Positions 2,223-52,829 of a stretch of 64,000 nt of DNA are shown here, in pieces. The position numbers and the translations under genes were made by a program. The notes under the pieces were generated by a model. It saw only the letters and a list, made by a program, of their open reading frames with translations. It was not told where the DNA came from and searched no databases. The stretch's first letter is position 1. The number at the start of each line of letters is the position of its first letter. Origin of the DNA: a virus. Taxonomy: Duplodnaviria > Heunggongvirae > Uroviricota > Caudoviricetes. Location: positions 44,218 to 108,217 of IMG/VR virus record IMGVR_UViG_3300032205_000001. One strand, given 5' to 3'.

Positions 2223-2264
2223 TGGGTGTGGCTTGGTGCGTACGAGGCATCAGCCCTCTCGAAG

Positions 2265-2332
2265 TAGTAGACGCTGGCTGGCGTTGAATCTGACAGAGGC
2301 CTCGTATCAGGGTTCGATTCCCTGCTTACTAT
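2265..2332 (+). ncRNA. tRNA-like non-coding element (acceptor-like stem plus perfect T-arm CAGGG-TTCGATT-CCCTG); not a canonical tRNA
   Basis: GGTTCGATTCC T-loop with a 5-bp T-stem; a 6/7-bp acceptor-like pairing TAGTAGA/CTTACTA; no anticodon or D arm can be folded; driven by the right half of the cassette at 2158-2222 and ended by the palindrome at 2334-2352. Confidence 0.25.
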
Positions 2333-2333
2333 A

Positions 2334-2352
2334 GAAAACTCAAGAGTTTTCC
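2334..2352. terminator. GAAAACTC-AA-GAGTTTTCC palindromic hairpin
   Basis: Ends the tRNA-like transcript and the 3' end of the leftward gene 2362..2808. Confidence 0.5.
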
Positions 2353-2361
2353 ACTAAGGGC

Positions 2362-2808: not shown

Positions 2809-2880
2809 GCTCGTACTACAAGGAACGAATCTCGGATTTTCAGAGAAAATGCAGGCTGCCTCGGTTGTAGTGCAGGCATG
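2806..2880. promoter_or_regulatory. divergent cassette, copy 3
   Basis: CAT-gctcgt-ACTACAAgg...TTTTCAGAGAAAA...GGTTGTAGT-gcaggc-ATG. Confidence 0.55.
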
Positions 2881-3441
2881 GGCGTCTACATCTACACGAT
2901 GCGCACGAAGACCCTGCCACTCAACGTGCTTGGCACGGGAACGGTCCAGGCGAACCTCTATAGCTTCGCCTACCGTTACACGAGCTATTGGAAGGGAGAC
3001 AGGGGATACAACAGCTACAACCTGATGTGCAGCAACGCTCATCGTCATGCACACGATGCGTTCGCCAAAGATCGGAGCGGCTACGTCATCGTGGGTGACC
3101 TCGACGATGGGAAGCTGAAGCTGGAAGGGCACAACGTCTACAGGAACGTGCGGGAAGCCATCTGGACGGATACAGAGCGCTTTCCCGGTGAACTCGTGGG
3201 ATGGGTCGGGGTGCAAGGAAAAGGCTTGTACCTCGCAAAGCAGACGCCATGGCGCAACGTGCAGACGCTCGAAGGAGACACGTGGATTGCCAAGCGCCAG
3301 CGCAGTGTGATGGATGCGCTCGGACAGGTGACGATCGAGGAGATCGTCGGCGATGATGTTCGGCGTGTGTGCCATTGCTGCGAGAACAATCCACACACCG
3401 AAGGCTGCCCATACAAAGAGTATCTCAACCTGCGGGCGTAG
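2878..3441 (+). CDS. hypothetical protein (187 aa)
   Basis: In frame with track ORF 2575..3441; ATG at 2878 lies 6 nt after GGTTGTAGT; TAG stop, then hairpin 3431-3448 and palindrome 3451-3469. Confidence 0.5.
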   Translation: MGVYIYTMRTKTLPLNVLGTGTVQANLYSFAYRYTSYWKGDRGYNSYNLMCSNAHRHAHDAFAKDRSGYVIVGDLDDGKLKLEGHNVYRNVREAIWTDTERFPGELVGWVGVQGKGLYLAKQTPWRNVQTLEGDTWIAKRQRSVMDALGQVTIEEIVGDDVRRVCHCCENNPHTEGCPYKEYLNLRA

Positions 3442-3469
3442 CCCCGCAAGGGAAAACTCAAGAGTTTTC
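3431..3469. terminator. TGCGGGC-gta-GCCCCGCA hairpin plus GGAAAACTC-AA-GAGTTTTC
   Basis: Between convergent genes. Confidence 0.55.
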
Positions 3470-3480
3470 TACTGCATGCC

Positions 3481-3669
3481 CTAGCGGGCGGTGAACTCAC
3501 CACTCGCTACTTCGGGTGCTGTACGGATGACAGGCTCCGGCATCTCGCCGTCCCATCCCAGATACAGCTGCGCCGCAATCACCAACATGCGAGGCTGCTC
3601 GGTAACCGGCTGCTCGTATGCCAGAAGGTTGGCAACGCGGCGAACATCCTGATTGAATGTGTCCAGCAT
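3481..3669 (-). CDS. hypothetical protein (62 aa)
   Basis: ORF track; start abuts the cassette at 3667-3741. Confidence 0.35.
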   Translation of the reverse strand: MLDTFNQDVRRVANLLAYEQPVTEQPRMLVIAAQLYLGWDGEMPEPVIRTAPEVASGEFTAR

Positions 3670-3741
3670 GGTTCTACTACCGAAGAGAATCCTCTGAATT
3701 TCAGTGAAAAGCCAACGCCCCTAACCTGTAGTGAAGGCATG
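3667..3741. promoter_or_regulatory. divergent cassette, copy 4
   Basis: ACTACcg...AATTTCAGTGAAAA...TGTAGTgaaggcATG. Confidence 0.5.
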
Positions 3742-4158
3742 AGCAACGAAACCCAACAGCCGAAACTGATCAACATCCTGTCCATCGACGCGTGGGCCGA
3801 CGGTGAGGACGGTTGGAACTGGAACATGTGGACGAAGGTCGGCACGTGCGACGTGTCCCTCTGCGACAAGCCCGAGGCTGAAATCCTCGCGTTTCTCGTG
3901 GCGTGGGATTTCCTCACGGAGAAAGCGCTGACCTCGTGCTACGTCGAAGATGATCAGTACAACATGGTCATCTGCGACAAGGAAACGCATCAGCCCCTTT
4001 TCGCGTTGGAGTACGGCGCACTTCAGGATGTGCCCGATAACCAGCCTCCTCCGGGCTCGTGGGCTGATGTGGCTCGGATGATGGCAGCTACCAGCGACGA
4101 TCCCTCGATCGACTGGGATGCGTGGAAAGATGAGATGAAAGAATCTGACCTGGATTAA
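3739..4158 (+). CDS. acidic hypothetical protein (139 aa)
   Basis: ORF track; cassette-driven; followed by a 10-bp hairpin at 4164-4186. Confidence 0.5.
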   Translation: MSNETQQPKLINILSIDAWADGEDGWNWNMWTKVGTCDVSLCDKPEAEILAFLVAWDFLTEKALTSCYVEDDQYNMVICDKETHQPLFALEYGALQDVPDNQPPPGSWADVARMMAATSDDPSIDWDAWKDEMKESDLD

Positions 4159-4163
4159 CCAAG

Positions 4164-4245
4164 GAATCTCACAGCTTGTGAGATTCTTACGATTGCCCGT
4201 GAGTTTTCCTTGGTGCGCCGACATATAAGCCGGTCGCCGGCTAAA
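4164..4245. terminator. 10-bp hairpin GAATCTCACA-gct-TGTGAGATTC, an orphan GAGTTTTCC half-site (4201-4209) and a GCCGG-tcg-CCGGC hairpin
   Basis: Between convergent genes 3739..4158 and 4251..4817. Confidence 0.5.
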
Positions 4246-4250
4246 ACCCG

Positions 4251-4817
4251 CTAGCCTCGGTTGGCCCACGCCGCTTCGAGCGCCTCGTGATACTTCGGGT
4301 CGACGTGCTCTTTCATGCCCTGAAGGTCATCGCCGAAGAAACCAAAGCACGAATCTTCGTGCTCCTCTTCGTGGACCTTCGAGCCACACTCGCCGCAATC
4401 GTGCGTTGACTCGATGGTGAATCCCCACACGTTGCCCGTGAGGAAATCATCGTAGATTTTTACTTCGCTCTTGAGCACAGCCTCGGCAGTCTCGCGAATC
4501 TTCTTTGTGATGCGCTTGACCATGTAGCACTTACGAATCGCCTCGGGCGTGGCCACGATGTAGCCGACCTGCCCTGAATCCCACGGGCAACCAAACGAGC
4601 CCGTGCTCATGGTGATGCCCGAGTGATCGTAGAGATACAGAGGGAGCACGATGCTGCCCTTGGGCGCATTCTCCTTCAGCCACTCTTGCGGGTCTTGCTT
4701 GGGCTGCACGTCACCGAGGTTATAGCGACGGTGCCAGCAAGCCATCACGCCGAGGTTATCCCATTCGCGTGGTGAGCCAGGGTCGGTGTCTTGAATGACT
4801 TTGACGATGATGCTCAT
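4251..4817 (-). CDS. hypothetical protein (188 aa)
   Basis: ORF track; start abuts a half cassette at 4815-4860. Confidence 0.5.
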   Translation of the reverse strand: MSIIVKVIQDTDPGSPREWDNLGVMACWHRRYNLGDVQPKQDPQEWLKENAPKGSIVLPLYLYDHSGITMSTGSFGCPWDSGQVGYIVATPEAIRKCYMVKRITKKIRETAEAVLKSEVKIYDDFLTGNVWGFTIESTHDCGECGSKVHEEEHEDSCFGFFGDDLQGMKEHVDPKYHEALEAAWANRG

Positions 4818-4860
4818 GGTCGTACTACAACTAGCCGAGGTTTGTTTTTCAGGATTTCTG
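4815..4860 (-). promoter_or_regulatory. half cassette (left half plus centre) upstream of gene 4251..4817
   Basis: CAT-ggtcgt-ACTACAAct...TTTTTCAGGATTTC; no right half, palindrome 4879-4899 follows. Confidence 0.45.
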
Positions 4861-4878
4861 AGGTTTGCTGCACACGAA

Positions 4879-4899
4879 TAGAAAACTCAAGAGTTTTCC
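4879..4899. terminator. GAAAACTC-AA-GAGTTTTCC hairpin downstream of the hicA-like gene
   Basis: Perfect inverted repeat. Confidence 0.5.
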
Positions 4900-4935
4900 G
4901 TTCTCTGGACTGGGGCTGCTGAGGACCCCTAGCCT

Positions 4936-5145
4936 CTAGGCAGCGAGGATTGTCTTCAGCATGCGCCGTGCGACGTTACGGCCCATGCGCTTGCCCCCTG
5001 GGATGGTGATCGTCGGCGAGCCCGGTTTGCTCATGACGATGTGAGAACCCTTGCCCCGACCGGGGAGCACTTCGTAGCCGTTCTCTTTTGCGAGATCGAC
5101 TAGATCCCTCGGTGTTGCCGTGTGGACTGAGATCGTTTTGCTCAT
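4936..5145 (-). CDS. HicA-like (YcfA family) putative mRNA-interferase toxin domain protein (69 aa)
   Basis: KGSH..PG..TIP..G..R.ILK pattern typical of the HicA fold; the start abuts the cassette at 5143-5216; no HicB-like partner seen. Confidence 0.45.
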   Translation of the reverse strand: MSKTISVHTATPRDLVDLAKENGYEVLPGRGKGSHIVMSKPGSPTITIPGGKRMGRNVARRMLKTILAA

Positions 5146-5216
5146 GCTCGCACTACAAGATCTCAGCTCGTCGTTTTCATGAAAAACAAAGCGTGCGAGG
5201 TTGTAGTCGAGACATG
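5143..5216. promoter_or_regulatory. divergent cassette, copy 6 (hicA-like gene on the left, 266-aa gene on the right)
   Basis: CAT-gctcgc-ACTACAAga...TTTTCATGAAAAA...GGTTGTAGT-cgagac-ATG. Confidence 0.55.
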
Positions 5217-6014
5217 CTGAATCGAACCATTGCCGGAATGCTCAAAGAGAACACGGGCTCGCATTTCCTCGATTCGGGGAGCGCGTACGGTCGCAATCAC
5301 GAGCGTAACCAGAAACGCACGTTCGAGAATGAGCCGGAGGCAACGGTCGATTTCAAGTATGGGGTTGAGGTGACGATCAACGTCTACCATTTCCTCAAGG
5401 ATCGGCTCACGCTTTCCACGGCGATGGATCGCAAGTTTCAGCGGTTCTGTAACCGCAAGGAGCACGCGAGCGAGACCTACTTTTCTCTCATCGATACGTG
5501 GCTCGCTACGTTCGATGAGGTTAGCGGCCTGTACGGCGAAGGTTCGCCGATGACCGTCAATACCTACAACGGCGAAGATCTGCTTTCCCAGGTCATTCAG
5601 TACACGCTGTTTCGCATCGATGACACCGATTACGTGGCTCTCATGATCCACGGTGGGTGCGATGTCCGTGGTGGCTACACTCGCCCGCGCATCTTCGAAG
5701 TGAACGGCGATGCTGCATGCATGTTCGATAACGCTCGTGCGTCGATCTACTGCACGCGCACGGGCAAGGTTCCCGGCCTGTTTGGTGAGATGGATGCGTG
5801 CGGTGCGTACTGGGACACGGAAAACGGCCACTCGTGGCACCGTGAAGGCAACTACGCCAGCGCTGGCGGTACGCAGCTTCAGGACTACGATCGCACCGAA
5901 GAGGAAAAGGGCGAGACCTGGGAAGCGGGCAAGCTTCACGTCCTGAAGGATGGATCGGCGCTTTGTCCGTGCTGCGGTGCGGCATTGGGCGTGAGCCACA
6001 TGGGCGGATACTGA
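5214..6014 (+). CDS. hypothetical protein (266 aa, begins MLNRTIAG, C-terminal CPCCG)
   Basis: In frame with track ORF 5088..6014 (Met43); ATG lies 6 nt after GGTTGTAGT of the cassette. Confidence 0.5.
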   Translation: MLNRTIAGMLKENTGSHFLDSGSAYGRNHERNQKRTFENEPEATVDFKYGVEVTINVYHFLKDRLTLSTAMDRKFQRFCNRKEHASETYFSLIDTWLATFDEVSGLYGEGSPMTVNTYNGEDLLSQVIQYTLFRIDDTDYVALMIHGGCDVRGGYTRPRIFEVNGDAACMFDNARASIYCTRTGKVPGLFGEMDACGAYWDTENGHSWHREGNYASAGGTQLQDYDRTEEEKGETWEAGKLHVLKDGSALCPCCGAALGVSHMGGY

Positions 6015-6093
6015 AACCTCCAAAGTTCCGAGGATTGTAGTTCTCGGATATTCCTTGGAATTTCAGAAAAGCGCAGCATCGGTGCGTATTTAG

Positions 6094-6131
6094 TTGACTT
6101 TGACAATGCGCTCTGATAGGTTGTGTACATG
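6094..6131 (+). promoter_or_regulatory. sigma-70-type leaderless promoter of the sigma-factor gene (TTGACT-N17-TAGGTT-N6-ATG) with an overlapping TTGACAAT box
   Basis: Same hexamer-N6-start geometry as seven other sites in the window. Confidence 0.45.
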
Positions 6132-6650
6132 CTGAATACGACGCACCAAGAAATCCTCGGGCTCCGCAACGAAATCCGCCGTGTGGTGGCGATGGTGTTG
6201 CGCACGTCGCGCTACTTCGCCGATGACCACATCGAAGAGTGCATGTCCGACGTCATGCTCCAGGCTTTCGACTACGGTGCGCGTACGTTCGATCCGAGCA
6301 AAGGCTCGGCGAAGTCTCATTTCACCACGTTCGCTAAGCACCGTGCCAAGAATTGGCTCAACCGGGCGTGCCGTCGGTTCGAAGTAGCCGACGAGTCTAC
6401 TACCGAGGACGGGGAGACTGTTTCTCACACGGCGAGCGTGCCGGCCGATGGAAACCCGGCGCTATCCCTCATGGCATCGCAAGAGCGTGCCCGGGTGCTC
6501 GCCGCAGTCGAGACCCTAGAAGACCGTGAGCGTGCGCTCGTACATGCGTTCCTTCGGCTGGGCTCGTGGATGCTCGCCGCAAAGGAAATCGGCGTTTCGC
6601 CGGCTACGGCTAGCCGAATGAAGGCCGATATCGTGGCGAAGCTTCGCTAG
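6129..6650 (+). CDS. ECF-like sigma-70 family sigma factor (region 2 + region 4 HTH)
   Basis: HFTTFAKHRAKNWLNR (region 2.x) and ERALVHAFLRLGSWMLAAKEIGVSPATASRMKADIVAKLR (region 4); TTGACT-N17-TAGGTT-N6-ATG promoter at 6094-6131. Confidence 0.7.
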   Translation: MLNTTHQEILGLRNEIRRVVAMVLRTSRYFADDHIEECMSDVMLQAFDYGARTFDPSKGSAKSHFTTFAKHRAKNWLNRACRRFEVADESTTEDGETVSHTASVPADGNPALSLMASQERARVLAAVETLEDRERALVHAFLRLGSWMLAAKEIGVSPATASRMKADIVAKLR

Positions 6651-6658
6651 GTAGGTCG

Positions 6659-6729
6659 GGCGCGCAAGCGCTTGCGCCGCTCACGGCCAACAGAAAACTC
6701 TTATTGAATGGGTCTAAGGGGAGTTTTCC
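6659..6729. terminator. GCGCAAGCGCTTGCGC palindrome plus split GAAAACTC-N20-GAGTTTTCC
   Basis: Between convergent genes 6129..6650 and 6739..7236. Confidence 0.5.
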
Positions 6730-6738
6730 CTTAGGGGC

Positions 6739-7236
6739 TCACAGCCCGAACGCTGCATCATCGAAGGTGCATTGCGAGCACTCGATGTCCGGGATTTCGA
6801 TCTCGAAGTCCCCGTGATCATCGAACCACGAGACACCGTGGCCCATGGCCTGCATTGCGAGGTAGTGGCCGAATTCCTCGGCGTCGAACCCATCCCGATC
6901 ACACTTCGCGCACTTGCTCTTGTGCTCGACGTCGGCTTGCTCGGCACGCTCGGCGAGCACATACACACTGACCTTGTTTGCCGCTTCCAGAGCGGCCCAC
7001 AGTTCGCCAGCGAGCGCGAAAGCAGCCGGCGGGGTCTGGGGTGCGTAGTCACTCCAATTCTCGCCAGCGCCCGGCCTAGGAAGGCTCAAGCGAGCCTTAC
7101 GCTCTGCCTTGGTTAGCTCGTTATCGGTCGAATGACCCTCTTCGACGAAATCGGCGTAAGCCGAAACGAAGAAAGCCTTCGCCGCAGCGAGTAGGAATTC
7201 ATCCTTGAAGATCGAGCTAGAGCCGATGTTCGTCAT
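6739..7236 (-). CDS. hypothetical protein (165 aa, acidic, CxxC pairs)
   Basis: Track ORF 6739..7527 trimmed to Met98 (ATG 7236) abutting the cassette at 7234-7308. Confidence 0.45.
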   Translation of the reverse strand: MTNIGSSSIFKDEFLLAAAKAFFVSAYADFVEEGHSTDNELTKAERKARLSLPRPGAGENWSDYAPQTPPAAFALAGELWAALEAANKVSVYVLAERAEQADVEHKSKCAKCDRDGFDAEEFGHYLAMQAMGHGVSWFDDHGDFEIEIPDIECSQCTFDDAAFGL

Positions 7237-7308
7237 GTTCGTACTACAACCATCGTGCGATTCGTTTTCTCTGAAAATTAGAGGATTGATGCTTGTAGTA
7301 CTGACATG
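7234..7308. promoter_or_regulatory. divergent cassette, copy 8
   Basis: CAT-gttcgt-ACTACAAcc...TTTTCTCTGAAAAT...TTGTAGTAC-tgac-ATG. Confidence 0.55.
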
Positions 7309-7599
7309 AGCAAAGCTGACGAACACATCCAGTACCATCTCACCATCCCCACGGGTCACATCCGACTCTTCACGATCCTCAGCGGCCTCAAGCTGGAGAT
7401 CAAGTTCCCGGGCATGCGCATGACCCGCAAGGCCCCGAAGTGCAGCACGATCCTCCGCCAGGAGTTCGGCCTCAGCGGCAAGCCGCAAAAGCTGTACGAT
7501 CAGTTCCTGGGGCTGCTCGTGAAGCATGGCGTGCCGCTCCCCGGCGAATACGTCAACCCCACGCCGCCGGCACCGACGACCGAGCCCGAGGTGAACTGA
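7306..7599 (+). CDS. hypothetical protein (97 aa)
   Basis: ORF track; cassette-driven; ends before the palindrome at 7631-7657. Confidence 0.4.
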   Translation: MSKADEHIQYHLTIPTGHIRLFTILSGLKLEIKFPGMRMTRKAPKCSTILRQEFGLSGKPQKLYDQFLGLLVKHGVPLPGEYVNPTPPAPTTEPEVN

Positions 7600-7630
7600 G
7601 AGCCCGGCGCTCCGGCGCCACCGGCCAACA

Positions 7631-7672
7631 GAAAACTCTTATGGCCTAGAGTTTTCCTCTATTGGCCTTGCG
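7631..7672. terminator. GAAAACTCT-tatggcct-AGAGTTTTCC hairpin plus GGCC-ttgc-GGCC
   Basis: Between convergent genes; GGCCTTGCGGCC recurs at 11357-11368. Confidence 0.5.
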
Positions 7673-7681
7673 GCCTGCTCC

Positions 7682-7864
7682 TTACTCGTCCCAGTAGTGG
7701 CGCGTTGCCGCGTCGTACTCCTGGTCAAGCTCGTGCTCGTCGAGGAGTTCAGCCTGCACGTTGCGAGCGCCACCCCTGGGCTGATTGCGGTGACGCATGT
7801 AACCGGCGTTGCGGTGCTGTGCCGCTACTGCAACCCCGGACCGTTTGTTGATGTATTTCGCCAT
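7682..7864 (-). CDS. hypothetical protein (60 aa)
   Basis: ORF track; start abuts a half cassette at 7862-7905. Confidence 0.35.
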   Translation of the reverse strand: MAKYINKRSGVAVAAQHRNAGYMRHRNQPRGGARNVQAELLDEHELDQEYDAATRHYWDE

Positions 7865-7905
7865 GGTGACACTACAACCGTGCGCATTGGGTTTTTCAGT
7901 CTACC
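7862..7905 (-). promoter_or_regulatory. half cassette upstream of gene 7682..7864
   Basis: CAT-ggtgac-ACTACAAcc...TTTTTCAGTCTACC. Confidence 0.4.
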
Positions 7906-8257
7906 CGAGCGGATTGGTTTTGCCACCACAACACGGGCCACCAATGGGCCAGTAGTCGCACGTCCAGCCTAGCCGCTCGTGGTCGATGGATGAATGGTGG
8001 CAGTGACCGTGCCCATTGGCTTGGTTTGCCTCGCATTCCTCGTGGTGCGCCTTCAACTTGCGCCGATGGATGATTTCGCAATAGCGATGGTTCACGTACT
8101 GAAGCATCGCAGCGAGGATCCGATCACCCTTTGTGATGGTGCCCGTCCATTGCTTGATCTCCAATTCGCGCAATAGCTCTTCGTACTCTTCGGCTGTGAG
8201 ACAGATCGAAGAGTCGAAGTAGAGCCGGATCAATGGTTCAACTGGCTTATCCGCCAT
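7901..8257 (-). CDS. His/Cys-rich hypothetical protein (118 aa)
   Basis: Track ORF 7901..8443 trimmed to Met63 (MADKPVEP); 11-nt overlap with the upstream gene. Confidence 0.4.
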   Translation of the reverse strand: MADKPVEPLIRLYFDSSICLTAEEYEELLRELEIKQWTGTITKGDRILAAMLQYVNHRYCEIIHRRKLKAHHEECEANQANGHGHCHHSSIDHERLGWTCDYWPIGGPCCGGKTNPLG

Positions 8258-8576
8258 TGGACACCGGCCCGAGCACAGCAAAGCGGTGACGGCTACCACC
8301 GAGGTTGGAGCGGCAGCACGAGCACATGCGCCAGCTGAATTCGTTGATACCGTCGCCGGTTTCGGAGTCGAAGTCCGGCACGAGGTTGGGCCCGAGGCGT
8401 GCGAGACCAGCATCGATCTCAGCAGCGCGCTCCTTGGCGCCATCCCTCAGCTCGCCACGGCCCGGGGACTCACCCTTGCCATAGTGCTCGTCGATACCCG
8501 AGTAATCGCCGTTGACGGCAACGAACAGGCAATCCTGGCACAGTTGGAGGTCATCCATCACGACTTGCATCGCCAT
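8247..8576 (-). CDS. hypothetical protein (109 aa)
   Basis: Track ORF 8247..8843 trimmed to Met90; CAT-N6-ACTACAA at the cassette 8574-8648. Confidence 0.4.
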   Translation of the reverse strand: MAMQVVMDDLQLCQDCLFVAVNGDYSGIDEHYGKGESPGRGELRDGAKERAAEIDAGLARLGPNLVPDFDSETGDGINEFSWRMCSCCRSNLGGSRHRFAVLGPVSNGG

Positions 8577-8648
8577 GCCTGTACTACAACCGAGCAATCT
8601 CCAATTTTCAGAGAAAACGCGGACCGGGTTGGTTGTAGTCGAGGCATG
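8574..8648. promoter_or_regulatory. divergent cassette, copy 10
   Basis: CAT-gcctgt-ACTACAAcc...TTTTCAGAGAAAA...GGTTGTAGT-cgaggc-ATG. Confidence 0.55.
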
Positions 8649-8831
8649 CTGCACACATTCATCATCCTGTTTCTCAACACCCCAGGTCCGCACGTTCCGC
8701 ACAAGGTCGATCACAAGGCCGACATGCGCGTGAGCGAGCACATCATCGACTCGTCCAAGAATGGCGAGAACTCGCGCAAGCGGCAGCTCCACAGCATGTG
8801 GCGCGACGAGTACAAGCTGGCGCGGAAGTAA
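8646..8831 (+). CDS. hypothetical protein (61 aa, begins MLHTFII)
   Basis: In frame with track ORF 8286..8831 (Met121); ATG lies 6 nt after GGTTGTAGT. Confidence 0.35.
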   Translation: MLHTFIILFLNTPGPHVPHKVDHKADMRVSEHIIDSSKNGENSRKRQLHSMWRDEYKLARK

Positions 8832-8835
8832 TCCC

Positions 8836-9036
8836 ATGGCCAAGCGTAGCGATGCTCAAATCCTTCGGGACCTTCAGGGTGTGGAAAACGGGCTGAGTCC
8901 AGAGAACCTCTGGTGTGATGGGGAAGCGAGCCCGGCTTACGTGCGCAAGCGTGGCGCAGAACTGAGGCGCCAGCGTGCAGCTCTGATCAAAGAGCTAGGA
9001 CGTGAGCCCACTACATCCGAGCTGTATGGGTTTTGA
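8836..9036 (+). CDS. hypothetical protein (66 aa)
   Basis: In frame with track ORF 8761..9036 (Met26); followed by hairpin 9039-9058 and palindrome 9092-9111. Confidence 0.35.
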   Translation: MAKRSDAQILRDLQGVENGLSPENLWCDGEASPAYVRKRGAELRRQRAALIKELGREPTTSELYGF

Positions 9037-9038
9037 TC

Positions 9039-9111
9039 CCTGAGCTGAGTCGCTCAGGTAGATCTCGCACCGTGCTGTGAAGCCCTGTGACGGAAAACTC
9101 TAAGAGTTTTC
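9039..9111. terminator. CCTGAGC-tgagt-c-GCTCAGG hairpin plus GGAAAACTC-TAA-GAGTTTTC
   Basis: Between convergent genes 8836..9036 and 9202..9480. Confidence 0.5.
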
Positions 9112-9201
9112 TAAATACAATAGCTGATTGGATCTGGTGATCCTTCCGGCCTTGGTAGGCGGCTCAGCTGGCAGCTCTATATACAGATCGTGAGCCACCC
9201 A

Positions 9202-9480
9202 CTACGGTGCCGTCGCCACACCTTCGCTGCCATCGTCATAGGTGATTTTGTCGTACTCGCCGCACACCTTGAACTTGTCGAGAAACATCAGCTCGCCACG
9301 GTCCATCACCCATGGCTTGTAGGTGATCTCGGTGTCGAGTGGAACGTCGATCGACTCGGTGATCGCATCCAGATGGAGCGTATCGCCGTTCACGGTCAGC
9401 TTGCGCGCGAGGTGTCCCGTGTAAGCGCAGCGAATCTCGCAGCTCTTGTGCCCTGCCATCAGCGTGCGGAAGGTCATCAT
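9202..9480 (-). CDS. hypothetical protein (92 aa)
   Basis: ORF track; start abuts the cassette at 9478-9551. Confidence 0.45.
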   Translation of the reverse strand: MMTFRTLMAGHKSCEIRCAYTGHLARKLTVNGDTLHLDAITESIDVPLDTEITYKPWVMDRGELMFLDKFKVCGEYDKITYDDGSEGVATAP

Positions 9481-9551
9481 GGTCTGACTACAACCATCGA
9501 GCCCGTCGTTTTCACGAAAATCCCGAGGTTCGCGCTTGTAGTACGGACATG
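9478..9551. promoter_or_regulatory. divergent cassette, copy 11
   Basis: CAT-ggtctg-ACTACAAcc...TTTTCACGAAAAT...TTGTAGTAC-ggac-ATG. Confidence 0.55.
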
Positions 9552-9746
9552 CTGCAATTCGTTCTCACCATCAACGTCGAGGGGCTGTCCTACGCTGACG
9601 TGGCGAGTGCGCTACGTGCCACGGCTTCCCATCTCGCAGCTGGCCGCTACAGTGCGCTCATCGCCGAAGGCGGCGACTCTGGCCGCATCATGGCCGAGGA
9701 CAAAGAGACTCGCATTGGTGGCTGGCACATCACCGAGGACAAGTAG
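9549..9746 (+). CDS. hypothetical protein (65 aa, begins MLQFVLT)
   Basis: ORF track; cassette-driven. Confidence 0.4.
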   Translation: MLQFVLTINVEGLSYADVASALRATASHLAAGRYSALIAEGGDSGRIMAEDKETRIGGWHITEDK

Positions 9747-9748
9747 CC

Positions 9749-9928
9749 ATGTATCGCACGTTCAAGCGCAGCTGTACGGACTGGCAAAGCTTCGCCAGCG
9801 CTCGCAAGATGACGGTTGATACCCATCTCAGCTACGCGCAAGCGCTCGAAGCCTGCGAGCAATTCAACAACAATCGGACCCCGCGCCAGATTCGCAAGGG
9901 GACTAAGCTCGAATTCGAGCGCATGTAA
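9749..9928 (+). CDS. hypothetical protein (59 aa; below the ORF-track size cut-off)
   Basis: Manual ORF MYRTFKRSCTDWQSF...EFERM; starts 3 nt after the previous stop; followed by a 12-bp long-range hairpin and the perfect palindrome at 10012-10029. Confidence 0.35.
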   Translation: MYRTFKRSCTDWQSFASARKMTVDTHLSYAQALEACEQFNNNRTPRQIRKGTKLEFERM

Positions 9929-9933
9929 GTTAC

Positions 9934-10068
9934 GCCAGGCACGGGGCACGAACACACTGGAACGTCGATCGTGCGGCGCCCAGTGATGCCCGTGCCTGGC
10001 TCTATATAACGGAAAACTCTAGAGTTTTCTTTCTACTAATCAACTACTAGTTCCTACTAAATTAGTAG
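9934..10068. terminator. 12-bp long-range hairpin (GCCAGGCACGGG ... CCCGTGCCTGGC), perfect 18-nt palindrome GAAAACTCTAGAGTTTTC (10012-10029) and CTACTAA-a-TTAGTAG
   Basis: Between convergent genes 9749..9928 and 10073..10522. Confidence 0.55.
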
Positions 10069-10072
10069 CAGC

Positions 10073-10522
10073 CTACGAGTACAGCACCGTGATCGATGCG
10101 GCGTAGGGGTTCGGGCTGAACTCCAGCCGGAGGCTCTTGATCGAGCAGTGCTCCAGCTTCTGCAGGCGAGCGATAAGCCGCTCGGCGGCATGCTGCGCCA
10201 GTAGCTCGCACGAGAGCGTAGTGGGCTCGCTGGCGATGCGATCCATGAACACCCCGAGCATGGCCTGGTCGAAGAGAAAGCCCCGGGAATCGAGCTTAGG
10301 CTCGCACTCCACGCTGACGTTCCAGCGGACGGGAATTGCCTTGCGGCCACCGTCGACCCGAACGAGCTGATCAGCCGGACCACAGTGATTGGTGCCCGGG
10401 GTCACGATGAAATTCGACAGCCCAGCGCGCTGGATCGTCATCGTGCGGAGGGAGAGGGAGATCGTGCGCACGGGCGCAGCAACCGGCTTAACAACCTTCG
10501 TCGTCGTGTGTTGGTTCAGCAT
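10073..10522 (-). CDS. hypothetical protein (149 aa, begins MLNQHTT)
   Basis: ORF track; preceded on the minus strand by TTGACA-N17-TAAAAC-N8-ATG (10523-10559). Confidence 0.5.
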   Translation of the reverse strand: MLNQHTTTKVVKPVAAPVRTISLSLRTMTIQRAGLSNFIVTPGTNHCGPADQLVRVDGGRKAIPVRWNVSVECEPKLDSRGFLFDQAMLGVFMDRIASEPTTLSCELLAQHAAERLIARLQKLEHCSIKSLRLEFSPNPYAASITVLYS

Positions 10523-10559
10523 GACAACCGTTTTATCAGGTCATGCGGCGATTGTCAAG
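10523..10559 (-). promoter_or_regulatory. leaderless promoter CCTTGACAATCG-N17-TAAAAC-N8-ATG
   Basis: Reverse complement read of 10523-10562. Confidence 0.5.
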
Positions 10560-10566
10560 GTATCAT

Positions 10567-10791
10567 TTACTTGGAATCCCGAGGTTTCCTGATCATCCGT
10601 TTGGCGCTTGCGAGCCCGCACTCGAAGCATCGCCGGCATGGGTAGAGACTACAGATCGGCAGCACGGGAATTTCAGCCTGGAAAACTCTTCCACGTCGAT
10701 CTTCAGATCGGTAGTTAAACCAGGTGATCTCGAAGAGCGCCATCCACTCGGGATCGATCTTTAGCTCAAGCTTCTGTGAGGAGTTTTCCAT
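10567..10791 (-). CDS. possible small protein (74 aa)
   Basis: ORF track; its start overlaps a GAGTTTTCC half-site; sits inside a split palindrome (10689-10789); weak. Confidence 0.2.
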   Translation of the reverse strand: MENSSQKLELKIDPEWMALFEITWFNYRSEDRRGRVFQAEIPVLPICSLYPCRRCFECGLASAKRMIRKPRDSK

Positions 10792-10799
10792 AACGGGCC

Positions 10800-11225
10800 C
10801 TAGGCCGCGATGCCCTCGGCCGGTTCGTCCACGTCAGAGAGTGAGGTTCCGCTTTGCGCGGCAAGCCACACCTCGCGGGAGAGCTGTCCCTCGTCGATGA
10901 TCTCCCAGTAACGATAGCCCGATTCGGCTTCCCACTCCACGGCGATCATGCGCCCGGTGTAGCTCGACGGGGGCTCCGGGCGATACGCGTGGCTCGCTTC
11001 CCAGGCCGCACGATGCTCAGCCTCTTGAGCCCAGAAACGGGCCTCCTCGCCGCACTCGTCGCACGTGACGAGCATGCAACAGCACGGCGCATCCATCCAA
11101 AACGGTTGTAGATCGACGTCCCGGCCATTGTCGACCACGAGCGAAGCCTTACGGGCTGCGATCTCTGCGAGATACAGCTTGTGACCGACGTAGCGGCGGA
11201 AGCGCTTTCCGAAGGTGCGAGCCAT
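10800..11225 (-). CDS. hypothetical protein (141 aa)
   Basis: ORF track; start abuts a half cassette at 11223-11268. Confidence 0.45.
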   Translation of the reverse strand: MARTFGKRFRRYVGHKLYLAEIAARKASLVVDNGRDVDLQPFWMDAPCCCMLVTCDECGEEARFWAQEAEHRAAWEASHAYRPEPPSSYTGRMIAVEWEAESGYRYWEIIDEGQLSREVWLAAQSGTSLSDVDEPAEGIAA

Positions 11226-11268
11226 GCCTGTACTACAAGCCAGGGAGAAACGTTTTTCAGGGATTCGA
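11223..11268 (-). promoter_or_regulatory. half cassette upstream of gene 10800..11225
   Basis: CAT-gcctgt-ACTACAAgcc...TTTTTCAGGGATTC. Confidence 0.4.
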
Positions 11269-11305
11269 AGGATTCACAGATCGTGATCACGCCACAGGGG
11301 AAGAA

Positions 11306-11368
11306 GAAAACTCTAGAGTTTTCCACTCCCCAAAGCGCGCAAGCGCTTGCCCCGTAGGGCCTTGCGGC
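11306..11368. terminator. GAAAACTCTAGAGTTTTCC palindrome, GCAAGCGCTTGC palindrome and GGCCTTGCGGCC, downstream of the leftward sigma gene
   Basis: Perfect inverted repeats. Confidence 0.55.
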
Positions 11369-11905
11369 CTAGGCCTCGTCGGCGAGATCCGCCACGATGG
11401 CTTTCATCCGGCGGGTTGCCGTGGCAGGCGACCATCCGACGAGCGCTCCGGCCTCGGTCTGTCCCATGCCGTCCAGCATGGCGCCCACGAACGTACGAGC
11501 GTCCGAGTCGAGCGTATCGAGCGCAGTGGCAAGCCAAGCCATCTCCGACCGACGCTCGACATCGAGGCGACCATCGGGGCCCACGAACGAACCACACTCG
11601 GCCACGTTCGTGCCGAGGGTATCGACGAGCATGCTCGTGTTCCCCTCGTCGTCGGAAGCTTCCGACACGTGGCCATTGTTGGCGCTCGCCTTGCGCCAGT
11701 TACGAGCGGTATTGCTGGCGATACGGAGCGCCCACGACTCGAACGAACCACGGGACTCGTCGAAGGTTTCGACGGCCGACAGGATGCGCACAACCGCATC
11801 CGACACGATGTCATCGGTGGCCGACGTGGGGCCAATGGCCCGCTCGACGGCGCGCGACATGGACTTGAGTAGCTTCGCGTTCAGTGCAGCGTTGATGTTC
11901 AGCAT
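11369..11905 (-). CDS. ECF-like sigma-70 family sigma factor (paralogue of 6129..6650)
   Basis: FESWALRIASNTARNWRK (region 2) and ARTFVGAMLDGMGQTEAGALVGWSPATATRRMKAIVADL (region 4); promoter TTGACA-N17-GATAGT-N6-ATG at 11906-11940 on the minus strand. Confidence 0.7.
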   Translation of the reverse strand: MLNINAALNAKLLKSMSRAVERAIGPTSATDDIVSDAVVRILSAVETFDESRGSFESWALRIASNTARNWRKASANNGHVSEASDDEGNTSMLVDTLGTNVAECGSFVGPDGRLDVERRSEMAWLATALDTLDSDARTFVGAMLDGMGQTEAGALVGWSPATATRRMKAIVADLADEA

Positions 11906-12043
11906 GTAGAGACTATCTCATATCATCGCCCGATTGTCAAGCATTCCGAGCATACTCAAATACGCCATATTGCTCGAGAATCTAAGATTGTCGAGGTATC
12001 GACGGACCTTGACAATCGAGCGGGACCGTGCTACCTTCTGTCT
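11906..12043. promoter_or_regulatory. divergent control region: leftward TTGACA-N17-GATAGT-N6-ATG and rightward CCTTGACAATCG-N17-TACCTT-N6-ATG, with the imperfect inverted repeat GATTGTCgAGG-N10-CCtTGACAATC
   Basis: Read directly from the sequence; the inverted repeat overlaps the rightward -35. Confidence 0.55.
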
Positions 12044-12307
12044 ATGCTGAACCACAACGATTCCCTGGTGAAGATGGCTTCCGAGCGCTACGAGCAAGCT
12101 GCGGCCGATCTGGAAAAGGCCTGCAAGGCTTACCGTAAGCATGCCTCGGGCCCGATGGCCGATTTCTACGATCTCCGTATGGAGGAGGCGTTCACGGCAT
12201 TGGAGATCGCAGCGGACGATCTGAGGGAGATCCGCGATGGCTACCGCCACACCTACCCCCATCCCGTGGCCATGGCGCCGCATGGCTCACGCTACCCGGT
12301 ACGCTAA
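12044..12307 (+). CDS. hypothetical protein (87 aa, begins MLNHNDS)
   Basis: ORF track; promoter TTGACA-N17-TACCTT-N6-ATG at 12009-12046. Confidence 0.5.
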   Translation: MLNHNDSLVKMASERYEQAAADLEKACKAYRKHASGPMADFYDLRMEEAFTALEIAADDLREIRDGYRHTYPHPVAMAPHGSRYPVR

Positions 12308-12699
12308 GCAGGCCTAGATCCTAGCAGATCTGGCATGCATTGTCAAGATCTCGCGTATGCATAGGAAAACTCTAATGTATACACGGCATATAGCGTGCCA
12401 ATATAGGAGTTTTCCATGGCTATGCATGCAACACATTGATATCATTGGCGCGAAAACTCTCCGCGCATAGGGATTTCAGCCTATTGGAGGGCGTGCCGGT
12501 CCCCACGTCTAATCACGACACCTTTTCACCCTCTAATAGGTCATTCCGCGATTGTCAATTTTCGTTTCAAAGGGGACCCTATTTCCATTTCCAATAGGAA
12601 ATCGAAAATATTGGAGAACTATTTTTCACCTGGAACACCTATTAACGCATTGTCAATGGCGCTCTTGACAATGAAGCCCGCCCCAACGAACCTCTTCCC
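12308..12699. promoter_or_regulatory. AT-rich repeat-dense intergenic region (candidate origin or regulatory switch)
   Basis: Five CCAATAGG/CCTATTGG-type boxes; the split palindrome GGAAAACTC (12364-12372) ... GAGTTTTCC (12407-12415) flanked by TATGCATA; a GCGCG-AAAACTCT-CGCGC hairpin; CATTGTCAA-N9-TTGACAATG (12647-12673); an A/T-rich stretch at 12580-12625. Confidence 0.4.
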
Positions 12700-12939
12700 A
12701 TGATGGAGACGCTCTTTATCCAGTTGGGCGATTTGATGGTGAACATCGCCAAAGTGAACTACTTCAAGCCCGCCGTGGTCCCGCACAAGTGCTACATGTT
12801 CCTCCACGGGACGCAGAACCCCGTAGAGCTGGACATCGGGCTCGATGGAGTGAAGTCCGCCCTCGCCGAGACCTACCAGCAGATGGCGATGATGCAGGCC
12901 GCTGCCAACAAGGCGTATGGCTCGAAAGGCAGCTCGTGA
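12700..12939 (+). CDS. hypothetical protein (79 aa)
   Basis: ORF track; CATTGTCAA-N9-TTGACAATG inverted repeat lies just upstream. Confidence 0.45.
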   Translation: MMETLFIQLGDLMVNIAKVNYFKPAVVPHKCYMFLHGTQNPVELDIGLDGVKSALAETYQQMAMMQAAANKAYGSKGSS

Positions 12940-13133
12940 TTGAAATCGCCGTCATCGAGTGCGCTCCAGGCCATCCCCAGCATCAGGTCGTCCTGAACGT
13001 GAACGGTGTGATTTTCTGGCTGCAAACGCCCTCCCCTGACAAAGCCAGCGCTCATGCGGTCGCTGACCAGGTGAAGTCCAACATCTCGACGCAGGTGGCT
13101 CGCCTCAAAAAGGACGAGGGTGGCAATGGGTGA
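12936..13133 (+). CDS. hypothetical protein (65 aa, GTG start overlapping the previous TGA)
   Basis: In frame with track ORF 12789..13133; GTGA overlap suggests translational coupling. Confidence 0.3.
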   Translation: MIEIAVIECAPGHPQHQVVLNVNGVIFWLQTPSPDKASAHAVADQVKSNISTQVARLKKDEGGNG

Positions 13134-13359
13134 TGTCCACTATGCCCTCGTAGGCCGCTCGCACCTCATCAACTTGGATAAGGTCATCCATATCGAATAC
13201 GACACGGAGGAAGACCGAGACGACGGGGATATCCACTTCTACTTCGAGAACGGCAAGCAGGTCATCATCACCGAGGTCTCGTGGAAGGAGTTCATTGCGA
13301 ACCTAACCAGCGCTCAAGGTGAGAAACGCCCGCCATCGTCCGTTGAAGGTACACCATGA
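13126..13359 (+). CDS. hypothetical protein (77 aa)
   Basis: Track ORF 13120; ATG 13126 after GAGGGTGG; overlaps the previous stop. Confidence 0.4.
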   Translation: MGDVHYALVGRSHLINLDKVIHIEYDTEEDRDDGDIHFYFENGKQVIITEVSWKEFIANLTSAQGEKRPPSSVEGTP

Positions 13360-18500: not shown

Positions 18501-18772
18501 AGGAACGCAAAGAAACGTTCGAGGTCATCTCCTATCTCGACGAGACGATGTCGGCTGGGCGGTTTCCAGAGGTCGACAAGTTTCTCGCGGAGATGGATGT
18601 CGACAAAATCGACAACGCTTCCTACCTCTTGGGTGTCGTGAACTACGTGTACCTCGCCAAGCGCAACGGCGACATTCTTGTCAATGGGGCTGCTTTCAGG
18701 GAGAAAGCATTTGCGCGGATGCGCCAGCTCGTCGGCGATGAACGAGCCGAGAACCTGTTCAAGCATCGATGA
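18497..18772 (+). CDS. hypothetical protein (91 aa, TTG start?)
   Basis: ORF track. Confidence 0.35.
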   Translation: MKERKETFEVISYLDETMSAGRFPEVDKFLAEMDVDKIDNASYLLGVVNYVYLAKRNGDILVNGAAFREKAFARMRQLVGDERAENLFKHR

Positions 18773-18951
18773 TGGTCCAAGTCCCTCCCAGGAACGACGA
18801 AAGCCCTTGCGTGGTTCAGTGCAACGGGCAGTACAGCGAGATTTTGCCCTTCAAGGAGGCAAACGAGCTGGCGATGTTCTACGCCGCCAAGGGACAGAAG
18901 GCCTACGTCTTCCGGCTCATTCAAGAGACGATGTATGGAGGGCGCTGATGG
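18769..18951 (+). CDS. hypothetical protein (60 aa)
   Basis: Manual ORF; ATGA overlap. Confidence 0.35.
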
Positions 18952-19463
18952 AGGAGATCGCCTTCACCAAGGTCAAGCTGCCGTACGGCTGGCTGGGCAA
19001 CATGGCTCCGTACCCCATCGTCTACCAGAAGCAGGTCTGGAAGACGTCGGAGGCGCTGTTTCAAGCTCTCCGCTTCGCCGACGAGAGTGCCTCTGAAACC
19101 TCGGAAAGGCGCGCAAAGATTCGCGCAGAAATTATGCTGCTCGGATCGCCCATGGCCGCCAAGATGGCTGCCAAGAAGAACCTCAGCCTGATGACGATCA
19201 CGCCTCGCTCGCCCGAGGACGTCAACAACATGCGCCGGGTGCTTTGCATCAAGCTCAACCAGCACATCGAGCTGGTGAAGCGGCTGCTCGACACCAAGGA
19301 CGCGAACATCGTCGAGGACTGCACGGCACGTCAGAACGAATCAGGCCTGTTCTGGGGCGCTGCCAAGGTCGATGGCAAATGGACCGGACAGAACATGCTC
19401 GGGAAGCTCTGGATGGAAATTCGCTACGAAATGACCAGGGAACTACCAAACGGGGAAGAATGA
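18948..19463 (+). CDS. NADAR (YbiA-like, DUF1768) domain protein
   Basis: YGWLGNMAPYPI...W.TSEALFQALRF matches the NADAR signature; in frame with track ORF 18678..19463. Confidence 0.6.
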   Translation: MEEIAFTKVKLPYGWLGNMAPYPIVYQKQVWKTSEALFQALRFADESASETSERRAKIRAEIMLLGSPMAAKMAAKKNLSLMTITPRSPEDVNNMRRVLCIKLNQHIELVKRLLDTKDANIVEDCTARQNESGLFWGAAKVDGKWTGQNMLGKLWMEIRYEMTRELPNGEE

Positions 19464-51451: not shown

Positions 51452-51457
51452 CTTGAT

Positions 51458-52825: not shown

Positions 52826-52829
52826 ATGT

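Follow-up and report, generated by a model that had tools for sequence, protein, structure and literature searches.

What does a large phage keep at the point where its genes change strand, when the change is followed by several hundred nucleotides that seem to encode no protein? The question is raised by positions 11906-12699 of a 64,000-nucleotide stretch of a phage of the class Caudoviricetes (IMG/VR record IMGVR_UViG_3300032205_000001, positions 44,218 to 108,217). The whole stretch is called the window here and all coordinates are those of the window. An earlier note, made from the letters alone, had read the interval as a strand-switch control region followed by a repeat-dense segment with the architecture of a replication origin having iterons and a DNA-unwinding element, or of a repressor-controlled switch, or both. 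We think it probable, although far from certain, that the interval is a transcription control hub made of promoter and gene-end cassettes that are used throughout the phage lineage, together with a conserved non-coding module. Nothing in the interval marks it specifically as a replication origin or as a lysogeny switch.

The relatives used for comparison were found through protein searches. They come from soil and groundwater metagenomes, on contigs 150-295 kb long that include Ga0604637_0000040 (294 kb), Ga0569702_000007 (275 kb) and IMGVR_UViG_3300037042_004723 (197 kb), and the related loci are labelled L001, L037, L078, L104, L107 (IMGVR_UViG_3300037042_004723) and L116-L140. Gene orientations in the window were taken from a codon-usage gene caller. 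From 12044 to about 45.2 kb the caller gave 62 plus-strand genes and four weak minus-strand open reading frames (ORFs), and thus the uniform rightward orientation claimed for this side largely holds. The description of the left side as running leftward or in pairs is loose, as the arm up to 11905 is a mosaic of seven plus-strand and 11 minus-strand genes. The interval 11906-12699 is the border between this mosaic early cassette arm and a rightward gene array of 33 kb.

A lineage-wide family of putative leaderless promoters

The short box ATTGTCAA/TTGACAAT was found 16 times in the window, where 1.4 copies were expected. Thirteen of the 16 lie upstream of co-oriented genes and seven of these have the exact geometry of a promoter form for leaderless mRNAs, TTGACAAT-N15-TAnnnT-N6-ATGCTGAAC. 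The only orphans are three leftward boxes inside the ORF-free gap to the right of the strand switch. A census of the window plus 29 related loci gave 77 distinct promoter-gene junctions, and the family consensus reads gatacc-TTGACAAT-N15-TA(a/t)(a/g)GT-ctctac-ATGCTGAAC. TTGACAAT is present at 74 of the 77 junctions; in 59 of them 35 nt separate the start of the box from the ATG, and in 59 the gene opens with ATGCTGAAC. The -10 hexamer has A at position 2 in 64 junctions and T or C at position 6 in 69, and G is found at position 6 in only five working promoters. Judged by its sequence and placement, the box ATTGTCAA/TTGACAAT would be the extended -35 element of a promoter used across the lineage, and its copies probably work as promoters or as protein-binding sites.

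The box is itself nearly palindromic (ATTG-T/A-CAAT), and hence degenerate or inverted copies that lie beside promoters give inverted repeats resembling operators. The inverted box pairs have 14, 8 and 66 nt between the boxes.

Unrelated early proteins begin with Met-Leu-Asn encoded by the same nine bases, ATGCTGAAC, of which the window has five copies against 0.6 expected (2152-2160, 10514-10522, 11897-11905, 12044-12052 and 62750-62758). The same start is seen in L001 and L116-L140. What is under selection would seem to be the opening bases of the leaderless mRNAs and not the proteins.

Putative divergent promoters of a sigma factor gene and an 87-residue protein gene

At the strand switch, between 11905 and 12044, a minus-strand gene of 178 codons stands opposite a plus-strand gene of 87 codons (Table 1). 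The minus-strand gene encodes a phage sigma factor that has 71 homologues in metagenomes. Its promoter matches the sigma-70 consensus at 10 of 12 positions and is kept in L116, L117, L121 and L125, and a 21-nt piece of it is identical to the promoter before a different gene in L001. The geometry of the promoter that faces the 87-residue gene is shared by L116, L117, L118, L121 and L125. The order of leftward sigma gene, rightward 87-residue gene, gap of 340-610 nt and next gene is common to L116, L117, L118, L119, L121, L123 and L125. The two genes are divergent in the window and in L116-L125; in L001 and L126-L129 the 87-residue gene is co-directional with the sigma gene or displaced. The strand-switch control region with back-to-back leaderless promoters that the earlier note described is therefore present, and it is conserved in relatives.

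The same note had called an inverted repeat overlapping the rightward -35 element operator-like. The repeat is there (Table 1), but it is kept with the same spacing in only two of six syntenic relatives, L117 and L121. This, together with the unequal spacings of the inverted box pairs, argues against a dimeric repressor of fixed geometry, and the operator reading of the repeat is not sustained.

A fold search with the AlphaFold model of the 87-residue protein gave no significant match. Two to four paralogous sigma factor genes, 38-53% identical to that of the window, lie within 10 kb in L107, L117, L119, L121 and L128, and each paralogous sigma gene of the related phages has its own leaderless promoter. 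The orphan promoter-like sequence antisense to the 3' end of the 87-residue gene (12318-12346) is matched by TTGACA-17-TAGGAT in L125 and by TTGACA-17-TATGTT in L119, and is absent from L116, L117, L118 and L121. Clusters of GATC or AGATCT (three to four sites per about 40 nt) lie at 12305-12350; in most relatives such clusters are found just past the 87-residue gene or beside the palindrome that follows it, with equivalents in L116, L118, L121, L126 and L127. Clustering of GATC (Dam) sites was considered as an origin mark and rejected, as the eight sites in the 794 nt of the interval are unremarkable against about six per kb genome-wide.

A palindrome behind the early genes

The second recurring element is an inverted repeat of fixed sequence. 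GAAAACTC is found 26 times in the window versus 2.2 expected, always at or before position 12459. These copies form 12 inverted pairs and two single arms, spread over window positions 485-12415, and the other 51 kb has none. Each pair lies 10-90 nt past a stop codon, either between convergent genes or behind the upstream gene of a tandem pair, and is usually preceded by a GC-rich hairpin (-13 to -20 kcal/mol). When the copies of the window (eight) and of the related loci were put together, 76 distinct palindromes were obtained, all with invariant 9-nt arms and with spacers of 2-34 nt. One further window palindrome, at 10680-10789, has a spacer of 92 nt. The general form is RGAAAACTC-N(2-92)-GAGTTTTCY, with a 20-bp version GGAAAACTCTAGAGTTTTCT, and palindromes with swapped arms, GAGTTTTCC-N8-GGAAAACTC, also exist.

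The copy within the interval (GGAAAACTC...GGAGTTTTCC, 12364-12415) is flanked by TATGCAT and was found at the equivalent place in every relative. The earlier note had correctly seen this split palindrome and its flanks; what it took for a local feature is a dispersed gene-end element. The palindrome is also used by a third phage lineage, that of L037 (52% G+C), which has a different promoter consensus (TATAAT... ATGAGCAAC). Therefore, whatever reads the palindrome is independent of the promoter. From where it stands the palindrome would mark the ends of transcripts.

Several observations on these elements stand by themselves. The arms are invariant across three phage lineages of 52-61% G+C (loci L001, L037, L078, L104, L107 and L116-L140). 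A second ORF-poor stretch of 277 nt, 10523-10799, holds a leftward promoter box (10551-10558) and the GGAAAACTC/GGAGTTTTCC pair that is split by 92 nt; a weak ORF of 74 codons overlapping this stretch starts within a palindrome arm (ATGGAAAACTCC). A second perfect palindrome, GCAAGCGCTTGC, occurs three times against none expected (470-481, 6664-6675 and 11339-11350). It is part of GC-rich hairpins and adjoins GGAAAACTC elements, and in L001, L127 and L128 it lies inside the palindrome spacers. Assignment of a strand to the palindromes by comparing the G..T asymmetry of their arms with the side of the GC-rich hairpin was abandoned as too weak (five agreements, two disagreements and three ties).

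A conserved non-coding module in the gap

The gap between the 87-residue gene and the next gene, 12308-12699, is 392 nt long and contains only non-conserved ORFs of 30-53 codons, in agreement with the approximately 390 nt lacking ORFs reported earlier. Past the palindrome, the remaining approximately 265 nt (about 12436-12699) constitute a single-copy non-coding module, the conserved blocks of which are called B, C, D, F and G (Table 1). Conservation in related genomes, which the earlier note had proposed as a check, was found: the blocks keep their order in at least 14 related metagenomic contigs, including L001, L126, L127, L132, L134 and L138, where they lie between a sigma gene and a homologue of the 79-residue protein encoded to the right of the gap. 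Pattern scans of IMG/VR and of the metagenome collection with block F and box G returned nothing.

Blocks B to D are of invariant length, 129-131 nt in nine of 11 sequences. Block D resembles a family promoter read leftward, TTGACAAT..atcACCTatTAAGGG compared with the standard TTGACAAT..atcACCTgcTAAGGT-N6-ATG, but it has a G as the last base of the -10 hexamer (relatives have TAAGGG) and lacks an ATG behind it. In L127 block D is inverted as a whole unit and blocks B and C stay in place. The A/T-rich stretch noted earlier was confirmed, with a GC fraction of 0.36 at 12550-12649 versus about 0.57 overall, a value that is also typical of any intergenic leader. Within the AT-rich tract GAAATCGAAAATATTGGAG is identical at 19 of 19 positions in L119, and AATCGAAAAT is retained in the distant relatives L001, L126, L127 and L134. 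Block G, with its 26-bp sequence CATTGTCAATGGCGCTCTTGACAATG / GCATTGTCAATGGCGCTCTTGACAAT, is identical at 26 of 26 positions in L119 and L125 and has a different spacer in L126. By comparison, the third-codon positions of the flanking gene are merely 52% identical between L119 and the window.

The remaining repeats that had been listed for this segment fared unevenly. The GCGCG/CGCGC mini-hairpin (about 12448-12466) exists in the window, but what the relatives retain is CTCTCCGC and not the hairpin. The perfect inverted repeat CATTGTCAA/TTGACAATG is present at 12648-12673, although with a spacer of 8 rather than 9 nt. Five CCAATAGG/CCTATTGG boxes had been counted; we found two exact copies and one with a single mismatch, and the motif is not enriched (31 in the window, 27.6 expected). 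Two of these boxes together make up a 13-bp inverted repeat, CCTATTGGAGGG/CCCTCTAATAGG (12479-12491 / 12528-12540), which is found only in the window and in its closest relative, L125. Two candidate elements of our own were also discarded. An extracytoplasmic function (ECF)-type promoter in block C (GGAGG-N15-CGTCTAA) was rejected, as CGTCTAA occurs only three times in the window and the upstream sequences have no common -35 element. A role for GCGGAGAG as the Shine-Dalgarno sequence of a small ORF was rejected because the ORFs downstream of it in the window and in L125 agree neither in frame nor in length.

The scar of a lost zinc-ribbon gene

About 250 nt of extra DNA lengthens the module in L116, L117, L121 and L123. 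This DNA contains a leftward (minus-strand) ORF encoding a zinc-ribbon protein with the motif ...WDNGRACFxCHxCGAxWQRRVV...GAPCxCG..., which has no Pfam or PHROG match. The conserved core is 64-81 residues and the longest ATG-initiated readings, in L121 and L123, are 100-104 residues. The ATG lies directly past block F (in L117 the gene is at about 300-500 on the minus strand), and the insertion site corresponds to window positions 12558-12566. The gene is missing from the window and from L118, L119 and L125. Block F, with its ACG, thus reads as the scar of a lost gene, the ORF having apparently been deleted in the clade of the window. In the sister phages about 95 nt separate the zinc-ribbon gene from box G upstream of it, the AT-rich stretch is the leader of the gene and box D comes after the gene. 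Hence, the sister phages give a context to the orphan leftward boxes, all three of which lie in the gap.

All five lettered blocks persist after deletion of the ORF, and in L127 blocks B and C keep their place although D is inverted. Both observations indicate that the blocks have a function of their own, and the module seems to be under purifying selection. Blocks B to D presumably act as DNA or as an unstructured transcript.

The putative promoter of the rightward array

The right half of block G is the -35 element before the gene of the 79-residue protein, the first gene of the long rightward array. In the homologues of this gene TTGACAAT is always at the standard distance from the ATG and the -10 hexamer is always off consensus (GAACCT, GACCTT, GAAGTT, GAATTC or TTAACT); the same geometry with an off-consensus -10 element was seen in L001, L119, L126, L127 and L128. 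As the -35 element is kept and the -10 element is off consensus in every relative, we infer that something beyond the host primary sigma factor is involved and that the promoter at 12665 is probably no simple early promoter of the host-sigma type. Candidates for the additional requirement are the phage sigma factor encoded alongside and an activator that binds the module. A search for a recurring alternative promoter motif that would support dependence on the phage sigma factor found none. A fold search with the model of the 79-residue protein also gave no significant match, the best weak ones being the LytTR domain of AgrA and bacterial PH-like domains (E about 0.2, template modelling score 0.44). 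The LytTR-like match of the predicted structure may be taken as a lead for a DNA-binding role, not as evidence of one.

Table 1 Features of the interval and of the two genes that flank it. pLDDT, predicted local distance difference test score of the AlphaFold model.
Feature	Position	Strand	Evidence or detail
Phage sigma-70-family sigma factor gene, ECF-sized, 178 aa, leaderless, starts ATGCTGAAC	11369-11905	-	Pfam Sigma70_r2 E=1.8e-11; PHROG 1740 'RNA polymerase sigma factor' E=3.2e-11
Putative leaderless sigma-70-type promoter of sigma gene	11906-11940	-	-35 TTGACA(AT) 11940-11933, 17-nt spacer, -10 GATAGT 11917-11912, 6 nt, ATG 11905
Inverted repeat GATTGTCGAGG-N10-CCTTGACAATC; arms GATTGTCGAGGT / ACCTTGACAATC	11986-12017		Degenerate leftward box versus rightward -35 box, 92% complementary
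Putative leaderless promoter of 87-aa gene	12009-12046	+	-35 TTGACA(AT) 12009-12016, 17 nt, -10 TACCTT 12032-12037, 6 nt, ATG 12044
87-aa early gene; two-helix hairpin and invariant C-terminal tail DDLREIRDGYRHTYPHP	12044-12307	+	22 homologues, alignment, AlphaFold pLDDT 78
Orphan sigma-70-like promoter TTGACA-17-TAGGAT, TG-extended -10; antisense to 3' end of 87-aa gene, no ORF behind	12318-12346	-	10/12 consensus matches
Gene-end inverted repeat GGAAAACTC-N34-GAGTTTTCC ('hairpin A')	12364-12415		Rightmost of 12 in window; RNA fold -19.5 / -17.4 kcal/mol
Small palindrome TGATATCA (TGAWWTCA in relatives)	12437-12444		Precedes block B
Block B CTCTCCGC	12457-12464		Invariant in 11/11 aligned relatives; also in L132, L134, L138
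Block C GGAGGGCGTGCCGGTCCCCACGTCTAATCAC; GGAGGGCGTGCCGGTCC..CGTCTAATCAC	12486-12516		Conserved; single copy in window
Block D, promoter-like unit TTGACAAT(12558-12551)-N..-ACCTATTAGAGG	12526-12558	-	Homologous to family leaderless promoters
Block F AAAGGGGACCCTATTT	12569-12584 (feature 12563-12584)	-	ACG at 12565-12563 where sister phages have ATG of zinc-ribbon gene
AT-rich conserved stretch CCAATAGGAAATCGAAAATATTGG...TATTTTTCACC, GC 0.36	12587-12648		Conserved in relatives
Block G, back-to-back boxes CATTGTCAA-N8-TTGACAATG	12648-12673		Left box toward putative lost leftward unit; right box is -35 of 79-aa gene
Putative promoter of first gene of long rightward array	12665-12702	+	-35 TTGACA 12665-12670, 17 nt, non-consensus -10 GAACCT 12688-12693, 6 nt, ATG 12700
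79-aa gene, conserved right neighbour of module; small beta-sheet and long helix	12700-12939	+	Predicted structure, pLDDT 84

A proposed transcription control hub and its rivals

The arrangement that we favour is as follows. Back-to-back leaderless promoters of the host type would drive the sigma factor gene leftward and the 87-residue gene rightward. The 87-residue unit would end at GGAAAACTC...GAGTTTTCC, the last of the terminator-associated palindromes, one of which would stand behind every early transcription unit. The remaining approximately 265 nt would be both the relic and the regulatory core of a unit, read leftward, that converged with the 87-residue gene on the shared palindrome. 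In the sister phages this leftward unit would be ordered box G, AT-rich leader, zinc-ribbon ORF, box D, about 100 nt of invariant length (C, B) and palindrome. Box G would be back to back with the promoter of the rightward array, which would need an additional factor, for example the adjacent phage sigma factor. The data directly support the motif families, used across the genome, as well as synteny, conservation and loss of the gene, and they show neither coding potential nor RNA covariation.

Several points weigh against this arrangement. Promoter and terminator activity are both deduced from consensus and position. Boxes D and G lack a proper -10 element (D has the conserved TAAGGG and G has none), and therefore the leftward unit may not be transcribed as proposed. 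As blocks B and C are still conserved in L127, where D is reversed, they are not simply the product of promoter D. Palindromes with short spacers fold weakly as RNA (-5 to -8 kcal/mol) and no U-tract follows the stem; they are therefore not classical intrinsic terminators, and we call them terminator-associated rather than terminators. Their invariant 9-nt arms imply a sequence-specific reader. Strict conservation, single copy number and a nearby AT-rich tract are also expected of an origin. The enrichments of ATTGTCAA and GAAAACTC are family-wide or arm-wide and hence do not single out the interval.

An alternative that we consider possible but unlikely is that the module is a gene for a non-coding RNA. 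Blocks C and B (about 12457-12520) would form its body and the palindrome its 3' end, either as a leftward small RNA of about 110-170 nt transcribed from D or G or as a rightward leader. It could act by base pairing, for example through the invariant CUCUCCGC (GCGGAGAG on the other strand), which resembles an anti-Shine-Dalgarno or a Shine-Dalgarno sequence. Block D, of family-typical geometry, lies about 100 nt from the palindrome and has no start codon at the leaderless ATG position, and the length from D to B is invariant. The sequence, which has stops in all six frames across blocks B-D in most relatives, is non-coding and is conserved well above synonymous sites. However, a consensus fold of 10 relatives (RNAalifold) gave only -1.9 (minus strand) and -4.2 kcal/mol (plus strand), with short helices, no consensus structure on either strand and no convincing covariation. 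A permissive Rfam search of the interval (E<=5) gave only noise of E>1, and the 13-bp stem of the window is shared with L125 only. The G that ends the -10 hexamer of block D, rare among the working promoters (5/77), and the reversed orientation of D in L127, where B and C are unmoved, also speak against this alternative.

We regard as rather improbable that the module (12436-12660) is a replication origin of the promoter-plus-unwinding-element type, in which transcription from leftward box G or D would run into the AT-rich tract, and strand opening would be brought about by the RNA made there or by a bound initiator. The repeated boxes of the interval are ordinary promoter -35 elements that are used genome-wide. 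They are of 8-10 bp, lie on both strands and have start-to-start spacings of 54, 352 and 212 nt, and Tandem Repeats Finder detected no tandem iterons over 11500-13200. Hence, of the origin with iterons and an unwinding element proposed earlier, there remains an AT-rich stretch that adjoins boxes. No DnaA box (TTATCCACA-like) was found in the interval. The module is, as an origin would be, single-copy in each genome and non-coding, with invariant spacing and strongly conserved blocks. Its GC minimum of 0.36 lies directly downstream of a leftward box, and the lack of a conserved RNA fold argues for a role at the DNA level. Cumulative GC skew, which the earlier note had suggested as a check, does reach its minimum at about 13-14 kb, but once genes are separated by orientation the skew is about 0 to the left and about +0.03 to the right, with no inversion of sign. 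No replication protein was detected among 44 window proteins and one large L116 neighbour, a weak argument as many of the neighbours have no detectable family. Moreover, the halves of the module need not be contiguous, as the sister phages have a 250-nt gene in its middle.

More speculatively, the RGAAAACTC-N(2-92)-GAGTTTTCY palindromes could be the sites of a dedicated phage factor, recombinase-like or hairpin-binding, that moves, inverts or coordinately silences early cassettes. The early arm would then be an integron-like array with 12436-12660 as its fixed anchor or origin. We give this idea little credence. We give slightly less to its narrower form, in which the GGAAAACTC/GAGTTTTCY palindromes, including that at 12364-12415, are sites of site-specific recombination or cassette mobility and the interval is the junction of a cassette array. 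The invariant arms with spacers that vary from 2 to 34 nt (92 nt in one case), the swapped-arm versions and the changes of gene order and orientation in relatives, which occur exactly at palindromes, would all suit such sites. The commonest short spacers, TA, AA or TAA, may be likened to the crossover centre of serine-recombinase sites such as hix and gix. No recombinase was found in the 64-kb window, where the best match to a Hin query had an E of 0.07 and the catalytic motif was missing. Every copy lies past a stop codon, as fits a role at transcript ends. Homologous recombination between repeated regulatory cassettes, as reported for the PeSL cassettes of T4-like phages (PMC2839356), explains the shuffling without a dedicated enzyme.

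The repressor-controlled switch of immunity or of lysis and lysogeny, with the ATTGTCAA inverted pairs as operators of a dimeric repressor on divergent promoters, is scarcely tenable, for although divergent promoters, an inverted repeat over one -35 element and a near-palindromic box often found in inverted pairs are all present, the pair spacings and the 11986-12017 repeat (two of six relatives) are not uniform, the flanking genes encode a sigma factor and a helical-hairpin protein, no helix-turn-helix repressor or integrase was detected in the window (64 of about 175 kb), no relative, prophage or other, was seen in 185,579 bacterial and archaeal genomes or 50,697 cultured phage records, and the genome is a 175-kb mosaic of small genes of the virulent type.

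Comparison with known systems

The closest parallel to a hub of promoter and gene-end cassettes is found in the promoter-early stem-loops (PeSLs) of T4-like phages, composite early-promoter/stem-loop motifs of which each genome has about 50, placed in plastic regions among ORFans (Arbiol et al. 2010, PMC2839356; Comeau et al. 2014, PMC4122927). Recombination between PeSLs shuffles genes, and their promoter and terminator activity is reported to have been demonstrated experimentally. As in the PeSL system, the window phage and its relatives have dozens of near-identical early promoters of sigma-70 consensus and stem-loops between small ORFans in a plastic early region. Identical motifs flank different genes, and insertions, deletions and rearrangements end at them, as illustrated by the contexts of the 87-residue gene, the 21-nt promoter piece, the zinc-ribbon gene and inverted block D. 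The differences are also clear. The window phage has no sequence or protein homology to T4-like phages. Its promoters are leaderless with a conserved ATGCTGAAC, whereas the 3' end of the PeSL motif has a Shine-Dalgarno sequence and a start codon. The stems of PeSLs consist of G/C tracts that lie in the promoter or next to it, whereas in the stem-loop of the window the 9-nt arms (GGAAAACTC) are A/T-rich and invariant, the spacer varies, and a separate GC-rich hairpin usually precedes the element. By analogy, the system would work like PeSLs without being a member of that group.

Other systems are more distant. In the T7 primary origin and in T4 oriF and oriG a promoter is combined with an AT-rich unwinding element. 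The interval is similar in that an AT-rich tract comes after promoter-like boxes, in a region close to early genes that is conserved, present once and free of coding sequence. Unlike these origins, its gap boxes lack a proper -10 element, sister phages have a gene inside the region, and skew and gene context do not point to replication. The iterons of P1 oriR, of the lambda origin and of plasmid origins are direct repeats of 17-22 bp in phased tandem arrays that adjoin or lie inside the initiator gene. Repeated short boxes beside an AT-rich tract recall them, but the window boxes are shorter, of mixed orientation, irregular and identical to promoter -35 elements elsewhere. The lambda immunity region has divergent PR and PRM promoters and tripartite operators. 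The strand switch shares divergent promoters and inverted repeats that overlap a -35 element, but no gene of the repressor or Cro type was detected, the operator geometry is uneven and there is no sign of lysogeny. Bacterial chromosomes have gene-end palindromes of their own, such as the inverted DNA-uptake-sequence pairs of Neisseria, REP elements and the mycobacterial TRIT terminator motif, for which readers are known or suspected (the uptake machinery, RAYT transposases). The window palindrome is like these in being an inverted repeat of fixed sequence, not just a structural hairpin, directly downstream of many genes; it differs in being phage-borne and restricted to the early arm.

The phage and the remainder of the window

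The window has about 57% G+C over its 64 kb, and neither tRNA genes nor, at the gathering score, any Rfam family were found in it. Its identifiable proteins are phage-like and include a metallophosphatase, an SPFH/Band 7 protein and an endolysin that has a peptidoglycan-binding domain. Searches by blastn and tblastn of 50,697 phage records gave no usable match for the DNA or the proteins of the window, and thus no annotated relative. The 87-residue family has no relative among the 185,579 bacterial and archaeal genomes. A protein identical to the window sigma factor is recorded on a metagenomic contig of 175,284 bp; a separate exact look-up of the sigma protein returned no entry. Given the lack of matches in cultured phages and of relatives in bacterial and archaeal genomes, the source is an uncultured large phage, with a genome of about 175 kb, that is probably virulent.

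Genes of the rightward array include those of a poly(A)-polymerase/CCA-type nucleotidyltransferase, an NT5C 5'-nucleotidase and a NADAR-domain protein (22021-22725, 22758-23357 and 18678-19463, respectively, all on the plus strand). Three neighbouring large genes on the minus strand at 50465-53795 encode proteins of 328, 455 and 321 residues that share the N-terminal motif ..SWLFSxNNRISFVSLND... These tandem paralogues have no Pfam or PHROG match and are possibly structural or host-recognition proteins.

Implications

If the proposed control hub is correct, it provides a map of the promoter grammar, of the transcript-end mark and of the boundary between the early and the next class of genes for the uncultured 150-295 kb phages of soil and groundwater, and the expression programme of these multi-sigma phages would become predictable from sequence. 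The ATGCTGAAC start shared by dozens of unrelated genes, 35 nt from the -35 box, would indicate selection on the first bases of leaderless mRNAs, which bears on leaderless translation as well as on transcription initiation. A palindrome of fixed sequence that ends early units across lineages with differing promoters would imply a sequence-specific reader. Finally, the 265-nt module would be a well-defined target for origin mapping or for protein-binding work.

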